64,000 nucleotides of DNA from a phage: sequence record PZ452611.1; one strand, written 5' to 3'. The position numbers and the translations under genes were made by a program. Position 1 is the first letter of the stretch; each line of letters begins with the position of its first letter. Positions 8,355-56,483 of the stretch are shown here, one piece after another. The notes below the pieces were generated by a model. That model had not been told where the DNA came from, made no database searches, and worked only from the letters and a program-made list of their open reading frames with translations.

Positions 8355-8720
8355 ATGGAACAAATGAACGATCAAGCGTCGGTTGCGATGAACGAGCAAG
8401 AACAACCTCAAGAATTTTTCTTAGGGTTAAGTAAAGATCAAGTGTCTCTTCTGCTAGTGCTTTCTTCTTTCATGGGAAGACTTCAGGAGCTCACACAACA
8501 GCCAGAGGCTGAACAATTATTCCAAGCTTTGCGTGAAGAAGAAAAATATCGTCGTTTGGACTATGCCTTAGGTTGGGTAGCTCAACAACGGGATATGCTG
8601 ATGGCCCTCTCTGGGACCACAAGTTTTGCAATGGGCCTGTTGGCTCAAGTTCAGGACAAATTAATTCAAGCAGGGTTCGCACACACGGCAAGCACTAACG
8701 AAGAACAAGGAGACAAATAA
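8355..8720 (+). CDS. hypothetical protein
   Basis: RBS GGAGA; 121 aa; stop overlaps next start. Confidence 0.45.
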   Translation: MEQMNDQASVAMNEQEQPQEFFLGLSKDQVSLLLVLSSFMGRLQELTQQPEAEQLFQALREEEKYRRLDYALGWVAQQRDMLMALSGTTSFAMGLLAQVQDKLIQAGFAHTASTNEEQGDK

Positions 8721-9991
8721 TGAGCGTTATTCAACAATTCGCTAACCCAATGAATCCGCGTGAAACTGTTTTACTGGCTCACGGCATGATTAAACGTGTT
8801 AGCATCAAGCCTATCAAAGGTGCTGATCCTACAACAGGTATTAAAACCACTGTGTGGCAAGGTAAGAAAATTGAATCCAGCCACACCATCTCTTTACTGA
8901 TTTCTGAACTGGATTCCTCTGATAACCTGCTTCAAGGTGGTGAAGAGGTCTGGATCAGCATGGGTGATAAGCTGCTTAAACCAGGTCATCAAGACTCTGT
9001 CTCTGTTAAGATTGATGACAAGTGGGAAACCGTAACGCCAGGATGGATCGTAAATATCCCTTTGAAGGCAAACGAGCATAACGGTAAGACCTATTACAAA
9101 GGCTCACTGGCTAAGATGGTTAAGCTGGGCGCAGGAGAGGCTCCAGCAGCGACTCAGCAGCAAAAACAGCAACAAGGTGCACAATCACAAGGCCAGAAGC
9201 AGAAACCTCAGCAGAATGCCAATCAGGACGTTTTACGCATCTATGGCGATGTGACTCAGATTGTTGGCAACGTGGTTACTGTTAATGACCACAAGATTGG
9301 CGAAGGTGCCATGGTTGTCACTGATGAGCAGCTTAAAGACCTGGTGGTAGGTGGTCGTGTTGCAGCCATTGTTGACAAAGACACTGGAAACATTATCAGT
9401 GGTTTCAAAGCCTATCCACCTAAGGCAGAGAACGGCACTCAAGGCTCTGGTGGCAAGCGTAAATCCTCTTACGACCCTATCGGTGTGGAAACGGGGCATA
9501 GCATCAATGCGTTGCAAATCATCCTGGATCGCGGGTTTAAGGTAGACGACCCACTAGGAGTGGCTAAAACACTGCACGTAGTCACCATTGAGCTTAAGAA
9601 AGAGTATGCTCAAGCCACCAACCGAACTGAAGATGAAGTAGGTGCCAGTGTCGGTAATGCGGTGTTGAACGCTTGTCGCCGTATTGACAAGAAAACGAAA
9701 GTTGATGATTTTGCAGCGGCAATTACTGCAGAAGCAAAAGATGTCTTGACTAATCTGGCTGAGCCGTTGTACGATTGGATCAAGAACGGTGCTGGGTCAA
9801 CCGACCATCAAGAACCTCAGGCTGCCAAACAGGAAGCAGCTCCACAGCAAAACACTGTAGACGCTCCTCCTGTAAATGATGAGGAAGATGACCCGATGGA
9901 TCAGAATCCGGCGCAGTATGACTTCTGTGATGACATACCTTTCGCTCCGGTAGGTTTGCAATATGGCAAAAGTAGAATCCACGCATTGTAA
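8720..9991 (+). CDS. putative ssDNA-binding protein (SSB-like acidic tail)
   Basis: RBS AAGGAGA; Gln-rich linker; acidic C-terminal region with DDIPF (E. coli SSB ends DDDIPF), here followed by 15 extra residues; located in replication module. Confidence 0.4.
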
Positions 9992-10586
9992 GAGGTGCAT
10001 CAAGTGCGGGGAGGTGAAAGACCTCTCCGAGTTCTACAAACACCAAAAGATGTCTGACGGTCATCTTAATAAGTGCAAAGAGTGTTGCAAGAAGGCCAGT
10101 AGGGAGGCTGACCAATTTTCCTACGACTCTTCAGAAAAAGGTGTAATACGCGTGCTGTACAAGGCTCAAAAGTGCAACAGCAAGCAAAGAGGTCACCCGC
10201 CTCCGACTTACACCAAAAAAGAGTTTAAGGAGTGGCTATACCTAAACGGTTACAAAGAGTTGTATGATCAATGGGTAGCCAGCGGATACGACAAAAGGAA
10301 AAAGCCTTCTTGTGATAGGATAGATGATTTCAAAGGGTACTCTTTTGATAATATCCGTTTAACTACCTGGGGAGAAAATAAAGACAAGCAGACGGAGGAT
10401 ATTCTGTTGCATAGAAGCACCAGCGGTAGACGGTGTAAAAATGTAAGGAGACTGGACATGAATGGCAACGTTCTTAAAGAATGGGTATCCCACAATTCTT
10501 GTAGAAGAGAAACCGGAATATGTGTTGATTACTACATTCATGAAAAAATTCCAGCTCCCGATGGATACCTCTATGAATACTTTTAG
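9963..10586 (+). CDS. putative HNH-family (homing) endonuclease-like protein, possibly degenerate
   Basis: N-terminal zinc finger [19 protein letters not shown]...[10 protein letters not shown]; C-terminal [20 protein letters not shown] resembles HNH_3-type motif but lacks the His; overlaps 3' end of SSB-like gene. Confidence 0.4.
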
Positions 10587-25349: not shown

Positions 25350-25367
25350 TTTCTTAACTAAACTATC

Positions 25368-25395
25368 AGGGGCTTTAAAAGGCCCCTTTCTTTTG
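25368..25395 (+). terminator. rho-independent terminator ending plus-strand arm
   Basis: AGGGGC-tttaaaag-GCCCCT then TTCTTTTG. Confidence 0.55.
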
Positions 25396-26347
25396 TCTGT
25401 ATTTCTCCTACCACAAACGGCCCAGCCTGGCAAGTGGAATAATTGACTAGCCAGCAATTACCAACACTGTACAAATATACATATAAAATAACTATTGCAT
25501 AATCTTTCATCTTGTGGTAGCAGGGCCATTTTTACACGTTTTCCTTCCAAAATTGCACGTAATGCAGCTATTGCATAAAATTTAACCTGATGCACATCTT
25601 CAATAGCTTGTCAACAACTAAAAATCTTTATAAGTCATACACTTACATAACCACAAAAGCGTGTTCTACGTGAAAAATCGAGTATAACTATAGCCGCCAG
25701 ATCTCAGAATTTACGTACGCTCACCATTCTATAGTCTGCTAAGTATTTATTCCAACCATAGAATAACAGAATAGTCAATACCTGCATAAAATAATTATTC
25801 GTGTAAACTGCATAACATAAATCAGCCGGGGTGTCAACATTTTTCGTAAACGGCTCGAAATTATCACTGTGAGCTATCATAAACAGAGAAATCTTTAGTC
25901 GTCTAATGTTTACTGTACGTTACTATACTAACTGGAATCATTAGATGACTAATAAAAAGATAAGAAATCATTAACAATGCAATTGTTTTATTCATAACAA
26001 TAAGGCAACTATGCAAACGAATGGCATGGCGCGACGGAGTCGCGACATAATATAAAAGCAGTAACCATCACCCCCGTGATAGTTTGTCTGCAAACTATTA
26101 ATCAGATCATAGTTGCCTTGTATTTAGTTAATCATGACATAAACTCAGGCATAGCCTTCGTCTCGAGGATGTTAACAAGCAAGGCAACTATAGATCTTCT
26201 AATAGTTGCCCTGCTTTTATATTATGTCATAGAAACACCCGAAGGGGTGACCAAAGGTCACCTGGCATAGCCAGTGAAATATTGTAAACAAGTTAATTAT
26301 TATCATGCAAACGAATGGCATGGCTTATCATCTCTGTGTAAATAGTT

Positions 26348-26511
26348 TGTTTGTAAACAGTTTATACGTGAACAGTTAGCTGTGTAAACTATCAGGCATG
26401 TAAGCTATTGAGCATGTAAACAGTAAAGGTCGTGAACAGTAAGCGAGCGAATAGTAATGGCGTGAACAATGACAGCGTAAACAGTCAGGCATGTCAATTA
26501 TGTTCAGTGTG
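26348..26511. repeat. tandem array of 11 units, 15-16 bp period, consensus n6-GTRAACAGT (iteron-like)
   Basis: 9-mers start at 26348, 26363, 26378, 26394, 26410, 26426, 26442, 26457, 26472, 26487, 26503. Confidence 0.7.
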
Positions 26512-27953
26512 TCACCATTATGTCATATTGTGTCAGACAAGTTTTTCTCCTCTTTGTCAAGTGCTGCATGAAAAATTTACAATCTGGTATGGTAGCATTT
26601 TTGCGGCCCTGTTTACATTCAGTACTGTATGTATAAGCCTTGTTGTGTGGGCGCTTAGACGTCTAGACGGTTGGAAGTCTGCAGGTCAATATCTAATCTA
26701 TTGGTTGCTAACTATATCCCACACAAATAGTAAGAAATGCAATTGTTATATGCGTAAACTGTAACTCATGTTATCAATCCCTGTATGGATCGCCAGTGGT
26801 GCGCATAATAGGTATTATGTTAAATTGCCAGTAATGATAACTATTCTCACAGTGATAGGTATTCTCATTCAACCCCACAAGATAGGTTGCAAATGTTGTG
26901 CCACTGTGTGAACGGCCTCGCCTATTAATTTGCCTCACTGCCTCGATATTTGAGAATTATTATAAGAATGAGAAGTATTCCCATTTCGTCCGCCTGGCAG
27001 CACTCCTGTAGGTCAGGTCAAAATCGGGAGAGAACTGGACCTGTTCAGATATTTCTGGCTGGCTCTTCAGGTCTGTGTGGGAAAAGCCGACCCCTCCGGC
27101 GGCGGGGAGGGGGTCAATTAAAAAATTTACGGGGCATATGAAGCGCTCTTCAGGTAAGGCATGTATTATGGGATGAAACCCTCTTCAGGAAATGATATTT
27201 GTGGGTGTGATATTTGCTGGAAAGCTAGATATGACTGGACTCCTGGCGGGGCAGGGGTAGTACAGACAGGGGAAATATGGGGGATGTAGTTGGGTAAATT
27301 GATCAGGCAGGTAGAGTATGGAATATGTTACGAGTATGTTAAATATGGAGGGTGAATATCTGCAGGATTTGTGTGTAAAATCAAAGACTTAAGTGGTGTT
27401 GTGGTATTTTCTATAAATAATTCAAGTTTAATAGGTGATATTTGTCCCTATCCACTTTGTGTGGTAAACAGATTCAGATGAGATTGGTTTACGAGTGTAT
27501 ACATAATATACAAATTAAAGATACAAGAAACCCCCCTCCCCCTTCGGCTACCATTCACCTTTTCCTCTGACTGGTACTTAAACACTTATTCAGACTCTTC
27601 AGGTTATCACCCATATATCATATGGCAGTGACTGGTGTCCTCCGGCCCCTCTTTCGTCACCCGTCCGCTTCGCCATGCTAATGCCATAGCCAATGGTTCG
27701 GTTGTTCACCCTGTTCACTCAGGTGTATCTCCATACCCCTTCAAACCGAAGAGAACAGAAAACCCGAATTACTCGGTAAAAGAAAAGAGAAGAACTTAAT
27801 TTTATCAGGATAAGCAAGAATGTCAAGGCATGACTGCTCACTAAACAAGCAAACAGTCATGTGTGGGAGGTAAGTGATTGTGGTGGTAGGAAATTTAGTT
27901 GAAAGATGTGTTATAGGTGCTCCCAGCACTTTAGCCGGGTAGCTAATTGTGTG

Positions 27954-36807: not shown

Positions 36808-37269
36808 CTACTTAAACAACAGTTCAAAATAGTGCAAAATTAACAGAAGTTGAATTACGCCTAGCACAACAGCAAGTATGTTAATCTTAGAATCAAAAAA
36901 CTTCTTAACTTTTACCCTAAAAGGTTCCTTAATGTCCTTTACGATCCTATCTATAGATGACCTCATATCCCTGATTACCATCCTGAACATTAAAGACGGA
37001 TGATCCCTCTCTGTAACGGAATCGAAAACATACTCTCTTTGATCACAAGGGCCGCCAGCTCTGCGTATTAACCTCTCCACAGAGACCTCGTACGACACAC
37101 CTGTAACGTAATCATCTATGACAAGGAGTGACGGGTCTTTATCGTCCAAGGGTATCAAAGTTATCTTTCCAGATTTTGTTAAAATTTCTCCTTTTTCAAG
37201 TAAGGTGTACCAATGCTCTCTGCCAAGACTGTTGAGGCACGTTTTTACATATTTAACAAACATCGTCAC
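36808..37269 (-). CDS. hypothetical protein
   Basis: ORF; C-terminal hydrophobic segment. Confidence 0.4.
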   Translation of the reverse strand: MTMFVKYVKTCLNSLGREHWYTLLEKGEILTKSGKITLIPLDDKDPSLLVIDDYVTGVSYEVSVERLIRRAGGPCDQREYVFDSVTERDHPSLMFRMVIRDMRSSIDRIVKDIKEPFRVKVKKFFDSKINILAVVLGVIQLLLILHYFELLFK

Positions 37270-38741: not shown

Positions 38742-39140
38742 TTACTGAACAGAGCGCGGAGCTGGGAAGGATAACTCTTCTAAAGAGAAGATTTCATTTC
38801 CCACAATCCATGTTGCCGGATCATCTGGGTTGACTGGATAGATAATCATCACCTCGTCCGTGTTACATACCCGCTTTTTACCTGTGAGGTTATCAGCAAC
38901 CCGCATGCGCGGTTCTTCAGAAATACACAGGTAGCCTCCTCGGCCCACTGTTCCTTCCACAGGATCCTGCCCTTTGATTACAATGATTATCTTCTCCCCT
39001 GTGGCGATATTGCCTTGCACACTAACAGTTTGACCAACTTTAGATGTGCCGAACTTGGTGGTTTCAAACATTAAATCTCGAATTACTGTTGCATAGTCTC
39101 CAGACACTTTCTTACCTTCTTTAGTGATCTCAATCTTCAT
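38742..39140 (-). CDS. hypothetical protein
   Basis: ORF. Confidence 0.4.
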   Translation of the reverse strand: MKIEITKEGKKVSGDYATVIRDLMFETTKFGTSKVGQTVSVQGNIATGEKIIIVIKGQDPVEGTVGRGGYLCISEEPRMRVADNLTGKKRVCNTDEVMIIYPVNPDDPATWIVGNEIFSLEELSFPAPRSVQ

Positions 39141-39409
39141 ACACTGGGCTCCTTAAATGAATCTATGTAATCAATTAAATCCCAAGCATCCCTATGACCT
39201 GTCAGAGGGTATACTTCTCCAAGAGGGATCATAGCAATAAGTCTATCAAAAACCCAATCTGGACGCAACATTTTATGGTGATACTCCCACTCACCTTCTA
39301 CAGACTTTTTCTGAGTGATCAGGATCTCTGTGTAGTGTTTCGCCTGTCTTGAGTAGATTGAGAATGACTTGTACATAAATGACCCCCTCTTGTTGAAAAC
39401 AAAATACAC
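39137..39409 (-). CDS. hypothetical protein
   Basis: ORF. Confidence 0.4.
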   Translation of the reverse strand: MYFVFNKRGSFMYKSFSIYSRQAKHYTEILITQKKSVEGEWEYHHKMLRPDWVFDRLIAMIPLGEVYPLTGHRDAWDLIDYIDSFKEPSV

Positions 39410-39411
39410 TA

Positions 39412-39726
39412 CTACCAGGTCACTGTCAAGTAGGCAACTGTGTTATTTTTCTCCGGAGAGATGCCAACAACATCCACCTGCAGACCTCCTGCCCTCAAAT
39501 CCCCAACAATGTGCGGGAAGTAATCTGAGAGATGCGAGGGTAGATTTATCGAAAATCCGCATCCCAGAAAGCCTGCTAACGCTTTATTTTGTATCTCCCC
39601 TACAATCGCATCATAAATGGAGTTAAGCTCGTCAGGGAGCGTTACAGGACGTTTTAGCGCTAACTGGTGTAATTTGTCCTTAGCACTCATTTTCATTTCA
39701 GGTCTACCTCTGGTGGTGCCAACCAC
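39412..39726 (-). CDS. hypothetical protein
   Basis: ORF; overlaps methyltransferase 3' end. Confidence 0.35.
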   Translation of the reverse strand: MVGTTRGRPEMKMSAKDKLHQLALKRPVTLPDELNSIYDAIVGEIQNKALAGFLGCGFSINLPSHLSDYFPHIVGDLRAGGLQVDVVGISPEKNNTVAYLTVTW

Positions 39727-40226
39727 ATAAATGGCGGCAAGCCTAAACGGTTTTTCTTATCCCACACAAAATATGCATATGCTTGCCCGTCAGTTCTGCC
39801 ATTTGATTGAAATGACGGACGCTTAGATATTGTGATCACAGTGGTAGGTGCATTATCAAGCCACCATTCAAATCTGGCTTTGCTTTCCAGAAAATTAAGA
39901 CGTAAAAGCATAATAACTACGTCAGCATCTTTCAACGCCTTGTCTACAAACTCACGAGCCAAGCTGTATGGTGGGTTGGTGATAATACAGTCAACATGGT
40001 TGTATTCTGTATTCAGATAGTCAACACCTTCTTGGATTTCTCCCCATGCAGATCCTAACGGCATACGGGAGTAGAACACACCTGAGGCACTATTCCTGCA
40101 AGGCTCTAAGTAGGTCCAGTCTTCTGGGAACGGAATAAGGTCATACAGCCCTTCTGCACACCACTCCGGTGTCACATACTCATCGTAGGCGTTACGTTGT
40201 TCATCAGGTTTTCTAGCACAAGTCAT
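39693..40226 (-). CDS. N6-adenine methyltransferase-like protein (probably DNA)
   Basis: motif IV DCIITNPPY; 177 aa. Confidence 0.6.
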   Translation of the reverse strand: MTCARKPDEQRNAYDEYVTPEWCAEGLYDLIPFPEDWTYLEPCRNSASGVFYSRMPLGSAWGEIQEGVDYLNTEYNHVDCIITNPPYSLAREFVDKALKDADVVIMLLRLNFLESKARFEWWLDNAPTTVITISKRPSFQSNGRTDGQAYAYFVWDKKNRLGLPPFMWLAPPEVDLK

Positions 40227-40277
40227 GCAAATCTCCAGATCATAAAAGCCCTCCGAAGAGGGCTTTAGAATTAATGT

Positions 40278-41327
40278 TTAAACTTCTTCGACAATTCCTG
40301 CACCCAGGATTTTTTCATTGAGCTCTTTTGCTGTTTTAATAATATTATCTACCAGACGCTTGCGAGTCTTATCTTTCACCTTAACCTCTTCACCGCCGTT
40401 CAGAGTAGTCTTCAATTGAGACAGAATATCCTGAAGTTCAACGACAGAGAATCTCTGCAGATCTTCTGAAGTAATCTCACCCAGGGCAATTCGGACGGTC
40501 TCGCCACTTTCCATCTGCAGATTCAGGAACACAGTGTGAACATCACCTTTCGAACCACCCGCTTTTGCAGATTCAACAGCATGAACTAACTCATCTAAAG
40601 ATGTGCACTGGTGAATCTCCGGAAGACCTGCTTCACCTAACACGCCTTCTTCATCACCTTTTGCCAGAAGCTTTTTCGGTTTTTGTCCGTTCTGGATGCG
40701 TTGTATGTTGCCTTCATCCAGAATAATAGCTCCAGTGCGTGCTGCCAGCTCTTCTCCGTCCAACCACACTTCGCCACCAGCTGTGATGGATGCGATCTCA
40801 TCTTCTGTCAGCACCCCACCGTAGTATTTTTCGATTAAGCGTTCGAAACGTTTTTTCCAGTAGCTGACCTGAGTATTCATGTTCACACCGTTACCATAAG
40901 TGCCACCTTGGTAGTAGTGGAACATAAACTCTGTGTCCGGAGCCACAGTGCGTTCTTTGCAACCCAGCCATAAGATTGTTCCCGCAGAGCAGCACATCCC
41001 TTCAGCATGTGCAACAACGCTTGCCTGAGACTCGCGGAATGCCTGCAGATAAGCCATTGCAATGTGCACGCAACCCCCAGGACTATTGATGATCACCCGA
41101 ATGCTTTCTTCCGGCTGAGCCATACGGATCGTCTGCAGACGAGACATATGATCTTGTAAGTCTTCCAAATCGTCGATATAAAGAACGTGGTCAACAACTG
41201 GTGTTGGGTAGCTGTATGTTTCCATAATACCACCCGGCATACCGAACATTTTATTACTCATAGGTTCGAAACCGTTCTGTTTTTCTTTCATGCCGTGTAC
41301 CATGGTGCTACGAGGTGTTAAATTCAT
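40278..41327 (-). CDS. ClpP-like serine protease (S14 family) with ~150-aa C-terminal extension
   Basis: VIINSPGGCV...GMCCSAGTILWLGC...FMFHYYQGG parallels ClpP YINSPGG...GQAASMGAFLL...VMIHQPLGG (catalytic Ser/His context). Confidence 0.6.
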   Translation of the reverse strand: MNLTPRSTMVHGMKEKQNGFEPMSNKMFGMPGGIMETYSYPTPVVDHVLYIDDLEDLQDHMSRLQTIRMAQPEESIRVIINSPGGCVHIAMAYLQAFRESQASVVAHAEGMCCSAGTILWLGCKERTVAPDTEFMFHYYQGGTYGNGVNMNTQVSYWKKRFERLIEKYYGGVLTEDEIASITAGGEVWLDGEELAARTGAIILDEGNIQRIQNGQKPKKLLAKGDEEGVLGEAGLPEIHQCTSLDELVHAVESAKAGGSKGDVHTVFLNLQMESGETVRIALGEITSEDLQRFSVVELQDILSQLKTTLNGGEEVKVKDKTRKRLVDNIIKTAKELNEKILGAGIVEEV

Positions 41328-41387
41328 GAGAAATCCTTAATATTGGAAGTTGAAAGCTATTTATTTAAACCTGATTCACATTTACCT

Positions 41388-41699
41388 TTATTTAGCAATC
41401 ACTATAGAGTACTTACGATTGTCAGAAGCATCGCAGCTCAATGATTGCCAGTCTACCACATACCACGTATCATTGTCAACAATCACTTTATCGCCTGTTC
41501 TGTAGCAGGTGCTGCTTTCAATAATCCGAGACTCGATAAAGAATCTGTGTCGGCGCTCACGTAGCAACGCTAAGTTGATTATATTGCCACCACTGTCCTT
41601 GATCCATACATTCTTGGATCCTTTATATGCCAGAATTGTCTCGCCGTTATAGACAAACAGGCAGTATATTTTATTTAGTTTCTCTTGTATTGTGGCCAT
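41388..41699 (-). CDS. hypothetical protein
   Basis: ORF. Confidence 0.4.
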   Translation of the reverse strand: MATIQEKLNKIYCLFVYNGETILAYKGSKNVWIKDSGGNIINLALLRERRHRFFIESRIIESSTCYRTGDKVIVDNDTWYVVDWQSLSCDASDNRKYSIVIAK

Positions 41700-41802
41700 A
41701 CTATCTCCTTCTCCTTGTCTTGTCCGATAATAATATCTAAAGCTTACCTGTTTGTCAACAACTGTTTTAGATATTTAAGGGTGGAATAACCACCCTTCTG
41801 TA

Positions 41803-42591
41803 TTACTCGGAAACAGGGGTCCAAATATGATTTGCACGATCCTCTATAAGATTGAGAGCAATCTGACGACCCAACCCGGAACGAACGACATCGTCTGGAC
41901 TATCAAAGCTGATCATTCCAACCTCGGGATCTGGATGACGAGTAAAGAAATCCGTCACCCATGCAAGGCCAGATTTACCAGGGATGTCACGTTGACTATT
42001 ATCGCCCATAATTACAAGGGTGGCCTGATCAGAGATCCTTGTAATAATTGACAACATTTCTTCAGGGTTAGTTTGCTGTGCCTCGTCAATCAGGACAAAG
42101 CATCGCTCATCGAAACTACGACCACGAATGCTTTCAACTTCACAAATCTCGATACGGCTGTTCTGACCATCTCCCAGCATTGCGGCAAAAGCACCTTTGC
42201 CAACACGACGACAAATAGTGTCCATCATGCTTCGAAGATAGGGCCACAGTTTTTGCATTGCATTCCCTGGTTTAAATCCTGAAGTCTTTCCTGTCTGAAC
42301 GTAAGGACGTGCAACAATGATCTTATCAATCTCGTTCTTACGCAGAAGATCACCTGCATATGCAGATGCCATGAATGTCTTACCGGATCCAAACACACCG
42401 TTTACAATAATAATCTTACGTGACCCTAGATAATCAAGATACTTTTGCTGCTTCTTATTCATTGGTCGGAGAGCTGGAGCAGTGTGCTCTCTTTCGTCAG
42501 CAAATTTCTCAGCAGCCTTACGCAGGCGATCAGATTTGCGAGCCTCTCTAGCTTCATCACGCATGCGTTTTGTTTCTTTAGCTCGACCCAT
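41803..42591 (-). CDS. phoH: PhoH-like ATPase
   Basis: Walker A GVFGSGKTFMASAYA; PhoH-like length and layout. Confidence 0.7.
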   Translation of the reverse strand: MGRAKETKRMRDEAREARKSDRLRKAAEKFADEREHTAPALRPMNKKQQKYLDYLGSRKIIIVNGVFGSGKTFMASAYAGDLLRKNEIDKIIVARPYVQTGKTSGFKPGNAMQKLWPYLRSMMDTICRRVGKGAFAAMLGDGQNSRIEICEVESIRGRSFDERCFVLIDEAQQTNPEEMLSIITRISDQATLVIMGDNSQRDIPGKSGLAWVTDFFTRHPDPEVGMISFDSPDDVVRSGLGRQIALNLIEDRANHIWTPVSE

Positions 42592-42629
42592 GTTGGGACT
42601 CCTTTCAGATTGAGATGTGCCAAGTACTT

Positions 42630-42980
42630 TTACTGCAACAGTTTTTCAATAGCCGCTTCCATGCTGCTTGCAACAGCCTGAACTCGGATATTCATCTCTT
42701 CTTGGTGGATCAGCTCCTTAAGCTCTTTAACGGTAAATTCTTTAGAGAAACCTTCCACCATGATCTTGTGCAAGGCTTCTTGCGTGTCCACTTGCAAGAA
42801 CTTTTCCAGTTTGTTGGCAGAGGCTTCTAAATCAGCCCGAATACGAGGGTCATCTGTGCGATTCAGCATTAGACGTAAGCCATCAAGATTAGTAGAAATA
42901 GCATCTGCATGTTGAGTAACTAACCGTGGCAAAATGAGATCTACAAACTTATTAGCCAAATCGATACGTTCTTGTGTCAC
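42630..42980 (-). CDS. hypothetical protein
   Basis: GTG start overlapping stop of a 37-aa Lys-rich ORF (42977-43090). Confidence 0.35.
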   Translation of the reverse strand: MTQERIDLANKFVDLILPRLVTQHADAISTNLDGLRLMLNRTDDPRIRADLEASANKLEKFLQVDTQEALHKIMVEGFSKEFTVKELKELIHQEEMNIRVQAVASSMEAAIEKLLQ

Positions 42981-43152
42981 TGTTGCACCCCCTCTTCATC
43001 CTCATGATATTTCTTTTCACGCTTGTGTTTTTTCTTAAGCTCAAGCGCAATCTCTTTTTTGTACGCCTTCTTCAAGGCTTTTTTAGCCATTTGGCACCTC
43101 CTCTGCTTTCATTACGACAATTATAACCAACTTAACAAAGCTTTGTCAACGA

Positions 43153-55717: not shown

Positions 55718-55939
55718 TTAGTAAAACTGAAGAATGTCTTTTAAAGCGAAGTCACGATATTCGCCCTTGTCTACATCGAAGGCATGCATCAACCACTGCT
55801 CTTCTTTATGATATTCTGTAGAGCCAAACCATAAATTAGGCTCAGTAACGCAGCGATCTGCAACAACACCTTTCCAGTTACGGTATTTCATCCTGATCAG
55901 AACTGAATCGCAAGGATTGAATACCTTTTTCATCCCCAT
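55718..55939 (-). CDS. hypothetical protein
   Basis: ORF; start uncertain (overlaps upstream gene). Confidence 0.3.
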   Translation of the reverse strand: MGMKKVFNPCDSVLIRMKYRNWKGVVADRCVTEPNLWFGSTEYHKEEQWLMHAFDVDKGEYRDFALKDILQFY

Positions 55940-56483
55940 AGAAATCTCTCTCCTCAGTTTTCTTTATAAACTCCTGCATGTAGAACTCAATAGCCTCATG
56001 CTTGGTGCACTCTGGATTAATGACAAGATTGAGATCTGATTCTGCTCGTGCAATGATCGTAGCTTTAGAGCATCTCCTCAAGAACTTTGTCATATCATCT
56101 CTGTAGTTTTTGTGGAGCGGGAAGTCGCTGTAGTCTTTCTCCAGATAGTCAGCCATCCGGCGCAACGCCTCTGATAAACTGCAATCTGTATACTCGTTAC
56201 AGTATTTCATCCAGTATTTAAGCACATACCCCTCAAAGGTATTAGTGCACTGAGACAAAACACCCCTGCAACGACCAGTCAGATGATCATGATCTAGACA
56301 AGGCTTACGAAGTGGCTCGCACAAGATAGGATCAAGACCATCCTGCTCCTCTGACAATTCTTTTCGAAAGTTGGCTATGTCTTTAGAATCTTTTAGCCAC
56401 CCGTTATGAACGGGTGCTTTGACAGCTTTCTTTCTTATTTTACGCTTTGCGATAATCCCTCCAGATGCGCCCTGCCTATCCAA
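55878..56483 (-). CDS. endonuclease VII-like (T4 gp49-type) nuclease
   Basis: LDHDHLTGRCRGVLSQCTN motif (DHDH.TG..RG.LC..CN). Confidence 0.6.
   Translation of the reverse strand: MDRQGASGGIIAKRKIRKKAVKAPVHNGWLKDSKDIANFRKELSEEQDGLDPILCEPLRKPCLDHDHLTGRCRGVLSQCTNTFEGYVLKYWMKYCNEYTDCSLSEALRRMADYLEKDYSDFPLHKNYRDDMTKFLRRCSKATIIARAESDLNLVINPECTKHEAIEFYMQEFIKKTEERDFYGDEKGIQSLRFSSDQDEIP

Follow-up and report, generated by a model that had tools for sequence, protein, structure and literature searches.

A ClpP-fold serine protease of phage rV5 that is encoded with metabolism genes and probably stands apart from head assembly

A gene for a ClpP-like serine protease lying between a methyltransferase gene and phoH, in a block of metabolism genes, raises the question of whether its product matures phage heads or acts elsewhere in the infected cell. 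The gene occupies positions 40278-41327 (including the stop codon) on the minus strand of a 64,000-nucleotide stretch of phage DNA (sequence record PZ452611.1; the whole stretch is referred to here as the window) and, according to the list of open reading frames, encodes 349 amino acids. A sequence-only reading had recognized in it a ClpP-like protease with a long C-terminal extension, far from any structural genes, and had suggested either a prohead protease-scaffold fusion with an unusual placement or a regulatory protease. The 4-kb region around the gene is 100% identical, in reverse complement, to that of Escherichia phage rV5 (V5; DQ832317 / NC_011041) and 95-99% identical to those of about 100 further rV5-like genomes, and a window position x converts to position 131965 - x of the rV5 record. 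The gene is rv5_gp117 (gp117 hereafter), 100% identical to NC_011041 90638-91687, and direct reading of the sequence places a ribosome-binding site, AAGGA (41334-41338, minus strand), 6 nt 5' of its ATG. It is a known gene, present in the public record under the same basic assignment as that of the sequence-only reading: RefSeq calls it 'ATP-dependent protease', and GenBank and Table S3 of the rV5 genome paper call it 'ClpP ATP-dependent protease subunit'.

Profile searches assign gp117 to a large family of phage proteins. The Pfam CLP_protease domain matches residues 59-168 (E = 2.1e-12; 47.7 bits over a cut-off of 20.2), PHROG 5410 'ATP-dependent protease' matches over the full length (E = 4.9e-155, residues 24-345 aligned to positions 4-322 of the 323 in the profile), and the match to PHROG 1827 is confined to the core (E = 2.6e-40). 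gp117 is a member of this PHROG 5410/1827 family, alongside ICP1 gp211, Cronobacter phage CR9 gp221 and the KVP40-type ClpP, and we find no difference that would set it apart, the long forms of the family having the same non-structural position, phoH-linked block and C-terminal extension. It is conserved in about 120 rV5-like genomes and in several related genera. The PADLOC defence-system models gave no match to gp117.

An AlphaFold monomer model computed from 30 family sequences begins with an N-terminal tail (residues 1-44; 41196-41327, minus strand) that is predicted to be disordered in the monomer (pLDDT <50 at residues 1-43). The tail carries an F28-G29...Y40-P41 motif that is conserved in the family alignment, and it neither resembles nor aligns with the axial-loop or N-terminal gating-loop sequence of ClpP. 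It leads into a ClpP-fold catalytic core (residues 45-215; 40683-41195, minus strand; pLDDT about 85-94), for which Foldseek retrieves dozens of ClpP entries among solved structures, the top matches all being ClpP (E ~1e-9, probability 1.0, target TM 0.64-0.72, about 20% identity); a phmmer search against the PDB also returned ClpP, with E down to 7.5e-8. The oxyanion-loop motif of the core, INSPGG, is the same as in ClpP, and residues 150-169 form a handle-like helix. By alignment, the catalytic nucleophile is Ser114 (codon at 40986-40988, minus strand), which lies in CCSAG and is equivalent to Ser97 of E. coli ClpP, and His137 (codon at 40917-40919, minus strand), in MFHYY, is equivalent to His122. 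Both are invariant in all 37 aligned relatives, which include the ICP1, Pakpunavirus, KVP40-like and T5-like proteins. The position of the third triad residue, Asp171 of ClpP, as mapped by alignment to P. aeruginosa ClpP2 and across the family, is held by Glu186 in gp117 (codon at 40770-40772, minus strand) and is not conserved (Gln in 27, Glu in seven and Asp in three of the 37 relatives), Asp being limited to ICP1-like proteins and short forms. Judged by its sequence, gp117 is real and looks active as a ClpP-type serine protease.

Downstream of the core, a linker (residues 216-243; 40599-40682, minus strand), modelled with low confidence and gapped in the alignment with variable length and sequence, connects to a family-specific C-terminal domain (residues 244-349; 40281-40598, minus strand) that consists of a helix, a β-hairpin and three helices. 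Its folded part, about 100 amino acids at about residues 244-342, is modelled with moderate confidence as a small acidic alpha/beta domain (net charge -5), with conserved residues at F293, E297, L298, G311 and R322. The domain is not a long coiled coil and has no match to known scaffolds. With the C-terminal 140 residues as query, a search of 1.84 billion representative proteins found family members only, plus two long repetitive proteins, which we rejected as relatives of the domain because the match is a low-complexity artefact. We also rejected a nested scaffold gene of the lambda C/Nu3 type, as there is no in-frame Shine-Dalgarno start near the beginning of the domain; codons 305 and 317 offer weak sites only, and Met272 varies among relatives. 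Up to this point the sequence-only reading is borne out: the open reading frame and its motifs IINSPGG, MCCSAG and FMFHYY are all present, the protein is ClpP-like by Pfam, PHROG 5410, the AlphaFold and Foldseek comparison and its invariant Ser and His, and the long C-terminal extension is resolved into a disordered linker (pLDDT <50 at residues 222-240) and a folded domain.

We next consider whether gp117 works as its annotation says, that is, as a canonical ClpP subunit whose rings would enlist ClpX or ClpA of the host, or mix with its ClpP, and redirect ATP-dependent proteolysis during infection. The likeness to bacterial ClpP (MEROPS S14; E. coli ClpP, PDB identifiers 1TYF and 6WR2) in fold, Ser and His positions, INSPGG loop and handle-like helix is in keeping with this, as are the Pfam match above its cut-off and the fact that phage ClpXP systems exist, but several differences make it unlikely. 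Only the broad Pfam ClpP domain model passes its cut-off for gp117, and the NCBIfam ClpP models (TIGR00493, PRK) all failed, scoring 20-39 bits against cut-offs of 228-361. Relative to bacterial ClpP, gp117 has about 20% identity, Gln (in most of the family) or Glu in place of Asp171, an unrelated N-terminal loop in which no gating-loop sequence can be recognized, an additional linker and domain of ~135 amino acids, and a docking pocket made up mostly of invariant charged residues. The ClpAP cryo-EM study (bioRxiv 10.1101/820209) lists L23, L48, F49, A52, Y60, Y62, F82, I90, M92, F112, L114 and L189 as the residues of the pocket into which the IGF/IGL loops of ClpX/ClpA bind. The pocket positions of gp117 read P43, R77, I79, E99, H107, E109, T127 and A129, with three of the 12 hydrophobic; the equivalents of Y60, F82, I90 and M92 are R77, E99, H107 and E109, none of which varies in the close family. 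Over the part of the pocket that belongs to helix B, there is a deletion or the alignment is poor. Across the gp117 clade, two to four of the 12 positions are hydrophobic.

As a control, we examined an environmental phage contig (L085) on which a clear ClpX gene (E = 1.5e-87) lies immediately 5' of a short ClpP-like gene. The ClpP-like protein of this contig keeps Asp171 and six of the 12 pocket positions, with hydrophobic residues at L23, Y62, I90, M92 and F112, and one prohead-type relative has eight of the 12 hydrophobic. Because the ClpX-linked control keeps just six and a prohead-type relative has eight, we rejected the idea that the pocket count cleanly tells ClpX-dependent proteins from others and downgraded the test, and we take the docking-pocket residues as suggestive, pointing away from canonical ClpX/ClpA docking. 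No Clp-type ATPase or unfoldase is annotated among the 233 rV5 genes, and three small 'ATPase' genes that we scanned are not Clp-like. The 'ATP-dependent' part of the gp117 label is unproven, and the name of the PHROG family is an annotation by homology. There are also ClpP-fold peptidases that act with no docked AAA+ partner, namely the SDH-type proteinases (PF01972), the NfeD/STOPP N-domain (PF25145), SppA (S49) and B. subtilis TepA, and gp117 may work likewise. The matches of gp117 to SDH_protease (15.7 bits, cut-off 31.3) and NfeD1b_N (18.8 bits, cut-off 40) are weak and far below the cut-offs, and the catalytic residues of these peptidases are Ser-Lys or come in another order, unlike the ClpP-type Ser/His arrangement of gp117.

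The other role to be weighed is in the head. The best-scoring families outside gp117's own are ClpP-related head-maturation proteases (NF045542; PHROGs 1684, 94, 2976 and 133; protease-scaffold or protease-MCP fusions), which have in common with gp117 a Glu at the Asp171 position and which often carry C-terminal extensions. The best NCBIfam match of gp117 is NF045542 (Clp_rel_HeadMat), at 60.4 bits and below its cut-off of 120. gp117 could, on this basis, be a second, displaced head-maturation protease with a scaffold-like or capsid-targeting C-terminal domain, acting alongside or instead of the protease of the head module on capsid or internal proteins, and its protease-linker-extension layout is like that of protease-scaffold fusions. 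We regard such a role as very unlikely, since rV5 has a complete head module with a predicted protease and a scaffold-like gene of its own. The module lies at 53.4-60.9 kb of the rV5 record, outside the window, on the other strand and about 30 kb away from gp117, which itself sits in a phoH-conserved block. It runs, in order, terminase gp065, gp064, gp063, gp062, gp061 and gp060, where the profile scan identifies gp064 as a Mu-type portal (Portal_Mu), gp063 as a predicted protease (Peptidase_S78_2 / XkdF, E = 1.1e-17), gp062 as a 325-residue protein of no Pfam family in the scaffold position, gp061 as a head decoration protein and gp060 as an E-type major capsid protein. gp063 is placed between the portal and the scaffold-like gene, a protein identical to it in the BASEL phage RudolfGeigy is annotated 'prohead protease', and it has ~40% identity to the ICP1 'capsid protease'.

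The same arrangement is seen in ICP1. The distantly related rV5 and ICP1 lineages each keep an XkdF-type protease in the head module as well as a phoH-linked ClpP-like gene, which argues strongly against gp117 being the prohead protease. Moreover, the ICP1 transcriptome table assigns the head genes gp122-128, including the Peptidase_S78_2 gene gp125, to the 'Late' class and gp205-211, including PhoH gp208 and the ClpP-like gp211, to the 'Middle-late' class, so that the ortholog of gp117 belongs to another temporal class than the head genes. 'Middle-late' expression in ICP1 does overlap the onset of assembly. When made in E. coli, the coat, decoration and scaffold proteins of ICP1 assemble into procapsid-like particles (PMC10002752), which also counts against a head role for gp117. 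In virions, none of six gp117 tryptic peptides appears in the rV5 mass-spectrometry table. Prohead proteases usually leave the capsid, and this table lists 19 proteins only, so the absence of gp117 is weak evidence. Among the proteins listed for Certrevirus CB7 virions is a 21-kDa 'prohead core protein protease', whose gene is flanked by those of the portal and of a 40-kDa structural protein; none of the listed proteins has the size expected for the ClpP-like protein. Taken with the small, acidic C-terminal domain, which has neither a coiled coil nor an internal start for a nested scaffold, these data indicate that gp117 is almost certainly not the head-maturation protease.

The placement of the gene across its relatives leads to the same answer. 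Within rV5, the conserved upstream neighbour is gp115, a PhoH-like ATPase (41803-42591, minus strand; PF02562, E = 3.6e-47), with one small ORF between it and gp117, and the conserved downstream neighbour is gp118, a putative N6-adenine DNA methyltransferase (39693-40226, minus strand) with weak Dam and EcoRI_methylase Pfam matches below the cut-offs; orthologs of gp118, 60-66% identical, lie directly 3' of the ClpP-like gene in three other genera. The block to which these genes belong starts with those for ribonucleotide reductase and continues with phoH, (DprA-like) and one or two small ORFs to the ClpP-like gene, after which come the methyltransferase and a tRNA nucleotidyltransferase. rV5 shares this order with a Seunavirus-like Salmonella phage, Klebsiella Mydovirus VLCpiM5a and Cronobacter Certrevirus CR9, and ICP1 has it in reduced form. 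We collected 79 related loci from IMG/VR and searched the ORFs in them with small HMMs. Among the 17 long-form loci (308-349 aa), a gp118-like methyltransferase gene lies directly 3' of the ClpP-like gene in every one, phoH is found 0.5-2.1 kb 5' on the same strand in 16 (as also in ICP1), and a DprA-like gene is present in 13. Prohead-type relatives adjoin portal and terminase genes, whereas none of these 17 loci has an rV5-type portal, MCP or XkdF gene within 10 kb of the ClpP-like gene. The short forms (about 185-200 aa) occur among T4-like replication and metabolism genes, and those annotated in Pakpunavirus, a KVP40-like Vibrio phage and a T5-like Klebsiella phage are in non-structural regions. 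More distant long forms (344-672 aa), by bulk Pfam annotation of their neighbours, adjoin lambda-type portal, terminase gpA/Nu1 and cement genes; these loci are genuine head modules and count in favour of a head role for gp117. PHROGs 5410 and 1827 are categorized as 'other', and for the family they define a non-structural position is the rule.

The proposals of the sequence-only reading concerning function and placement fare unevenly in the light of these results. Its position between a methyltransferase gene and phoH in a metabolism block is as described. Its distance from 'any structural genes' is right for the head-assembly genes and too broad as worded, given the virion protein gp128 encoded nearby, which would also count for a head role. 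Of the outcome that it had named as refuting, half holds: the full genome contains head genes with their own protease, far away and not directly upstream of gp117. A prohead protease-scaffold fusion does not fit the separate gp063 in the head module, the absence of a coiled coil from the C-terminal domain and the lack of a nested start, and the placement that had been called unusual is the usual one for the PHROG 5410/1827 family. The regulatory alternative gains in so far as the evidence favours a non-structural reading.

It may also be asked whether gp117 cleaves anything. That it is a ClpP-fold protein with a mainly non-proteolytic role, either as a decoy that poisons or caps host ClpP or ClpX or as a crotonase-like enzyme, with Ser and His kept for other reasons, is an idea to which the unconserved third triad residue, the known inactive ClpP paralogs (ClpR) and weak crotonase/enoyl-CoA hydratase matches within a common ClpP/crotonase fold lend something, but which we set aside as the least likely of all, for those matches are insignificant (E 0.003-0.12, far below cut-offs) and an active serine protease would be expected to keep Ser114, His137 and the oxyanion-loop Gly residues, all of which are invariant in relatives as distant as about 25% identity.

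Based on the above, we favour, with somewhat more confidence than doubt, the interpretation that gp117 is a serine protease of ClpP fold with a non-structural role, which is produced along with the nucleotide-metabolism genes and has no part in head assembly. As such it would form rings enclosing the active sites, as other ClpP-fold enzymes do, and would cleave cytoplasmic proteins of the host or the phage in mid-infection. The C-terminal domain, borne on its flexible linker, may serve as a module for targeting, for assembly or for the recognition of substrates or partners. Canonical docking of ClpX or ClpA through the IGF/IGL pocket is probably absent from gp117, from which it may follow that the enzyme dispenses with an unfoldase or relies on some other partner. 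The link to PhoH may reflect a functional partnership or merely an inherited gene order, and we do not lean on a partnership because no such link exists in the more distant short forms. As to its origin, profile scores place gp117 somewhat closer to the ClpP-related head-maturation proteases (NF045542, 60 bits; PHROG 1684, E = 8.7e-22) than to cellular ClpP, and these closer scores, along with the Glu at the Asp171 position that is common with prohead-type relatives, suggest that it probably descended from a capsid protease. A morphogenetic role could have been retained.

A more far-reaching proposal is that the ClpP-like proteins of the long, phoH-linked form in rV5-like phages and ICP1 constitute a distinct protease class, in which the surface for ClpX/ClpA docking was lost and a C-terminal targeting domain was newly acquired. 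Such proteases would act in mid-infection, either unaided by an unfoldase or together with a partner of another kind than Clp, for instance the neighbouring PhoH ATPase, on specific host proteins whose destruction would aid takeover or counter-defence. We offer this proposal as speculation and think it rather improbable. A search of the literature found no experimental work on the substrates or the ATPase need of any family member. Proteases of this kind are carried by hundreds of large lytic phages of Escherichia, Klebsiella, Salmonella, Cronobacter, Vibrio and Pseudomonas, and if it is true that a gp117-type protease degrades host regulators or defence proteins, this would be relevant to phage therapy candidates (Vequintavirinae) and to the biology of ICP1 and Vibrio cholerae. 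The result mostly corrects an interpretation. gp117 has been annotated as ClpP-like since publication of the rV5 genome and belongs to a large phage family usually found among metabolism genes, and it would not surprise a specialist in large lytic phages.

Some observations on neighbouring and related genes may be added. The small ORF between phoH and gp117 in the ORF list, gp116 (103 aa; 41388-41699, minus strand), has no Pfam match. It has a BLASTP match (E = 5e-7) to the ORF that takes the corresponding place in a related Salmonella phage (L004:4183-4491), and we rejected it as a conserved partner of gp117 because this sole match is weak and comes from one related genus. gp116 and gp117 share a predicted sigma-70-type promoter 5' of both genes, TTGACA-17-TATTAT (41730-41758, minus strand), which is a consensus match only, at 11 of 12 positions, and which corresponds to P121 of the rV5 record (RefSeq regulatory feature, record 90207-90235). 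The gene for rv5_gp128 (ORF133 in the paper), whose product was found in virions by mass spectrometry, is about 3 kb downstream of gp117 on the same strand. Finally, the RefSeq name of gp063, 'DNA methyltransferase', has been carried over from PHROG 1530, of which gp063 matches only the C-terminal 160 profile positions; going by its profile matches and position, the label is an annotation error that has spread through RefSeq, and gp063 is a predicted head protease.

The rV5 gene rv5_gp063, which lies outside the window on the minus strand (positions 55883-56455 of the rV5 record, or 7883-8455 of L002, the stretch of that record carrying the head genes), is flanked by a portal gene and a scaffold-like gene, and from its sequence its product is a predicted XkdF/Peptidase_S78_2 prohead protease, despite the RefSeq label 'DNA methyltransferase', which is also carried by several related genomes. 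The source of this label appears to be PHROG 1530, whose match to rv5_gp063 is limited to the C-terminal 160 positions of PHROG 1530.

Within the metabolism/early block and approximately 3 kb downstream of the ClpP-like gene gp117 lies rv5_gp128 (window 36808-37269, minus strand; ORF133 in the rV5 paper), encoding a protein of ~151 aa. This protein was reported in the rV5 paper among the predominant proteins of the virion mass-spectrometry data, with 15.9% coverage, and its C-terminal segment is hydrophobic; it could be either a true virion component or a membrane contaminant.

A search of representative proteins with the C-terminal 140 aa of gp117 returned two long proteins (P0040 and P0041) with several matches each to 38 residues of this domain, but both are highly repetitive, low-complexity translations, and these matches are artefacts, not a sign of homology. 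In the environmental phage contig L085 (IMGVR_UViG_3300037634_001516), a clear ClpX homolog (8465-9856, plus strand; E = 1.5e-87 to ClpX structures) is encoded immediately 5' of a short ClpP-like gene (10001-10375, plus strand; 183 aa), and the two apparently form a phage-borne ClpXP pair. The same ClpP-like protein is also present in two similar contigs, L080 and L084.

In the rV5 window and in three related phage loci (L004-L006), the interval from the phoH/DprA-like genes to the ClpP-like gene always holds one or two small ORFs of unassigned function, among them gp116 (window 41388-41699, minus strand) in rV5 and small ORFs at the corresponding place in all three loci. A small ORF of ~150-160 aa is kept in Seunavirus-like, Mydovirus and Certrevirus phages with 31-68% identity, whereas rV5 lacks it and retains only one of ~100 aa.

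A 2.6-kb stretch without annotated genes (window ~25350-27950; rV5 record ~104013-106618) contains short ORFs only, and here the direction of transcription switches and the cumulative GC skew reaches its maximum. The sole repeat found in this stretch is a weak 16-bp tandem repeat (window 26383-26421). It may serve as an origin of replication or have a regulatory role.

A search with window 39000-43000 also matched 19 GenBank records titled 'Campylobacter phage' (MG0656xx; stated host Campylobacter jejuni) with ~97% identity to the E. coli phage rV5 across these 4 kb, which suggests mislabelled hosts or contaminating coliphages.
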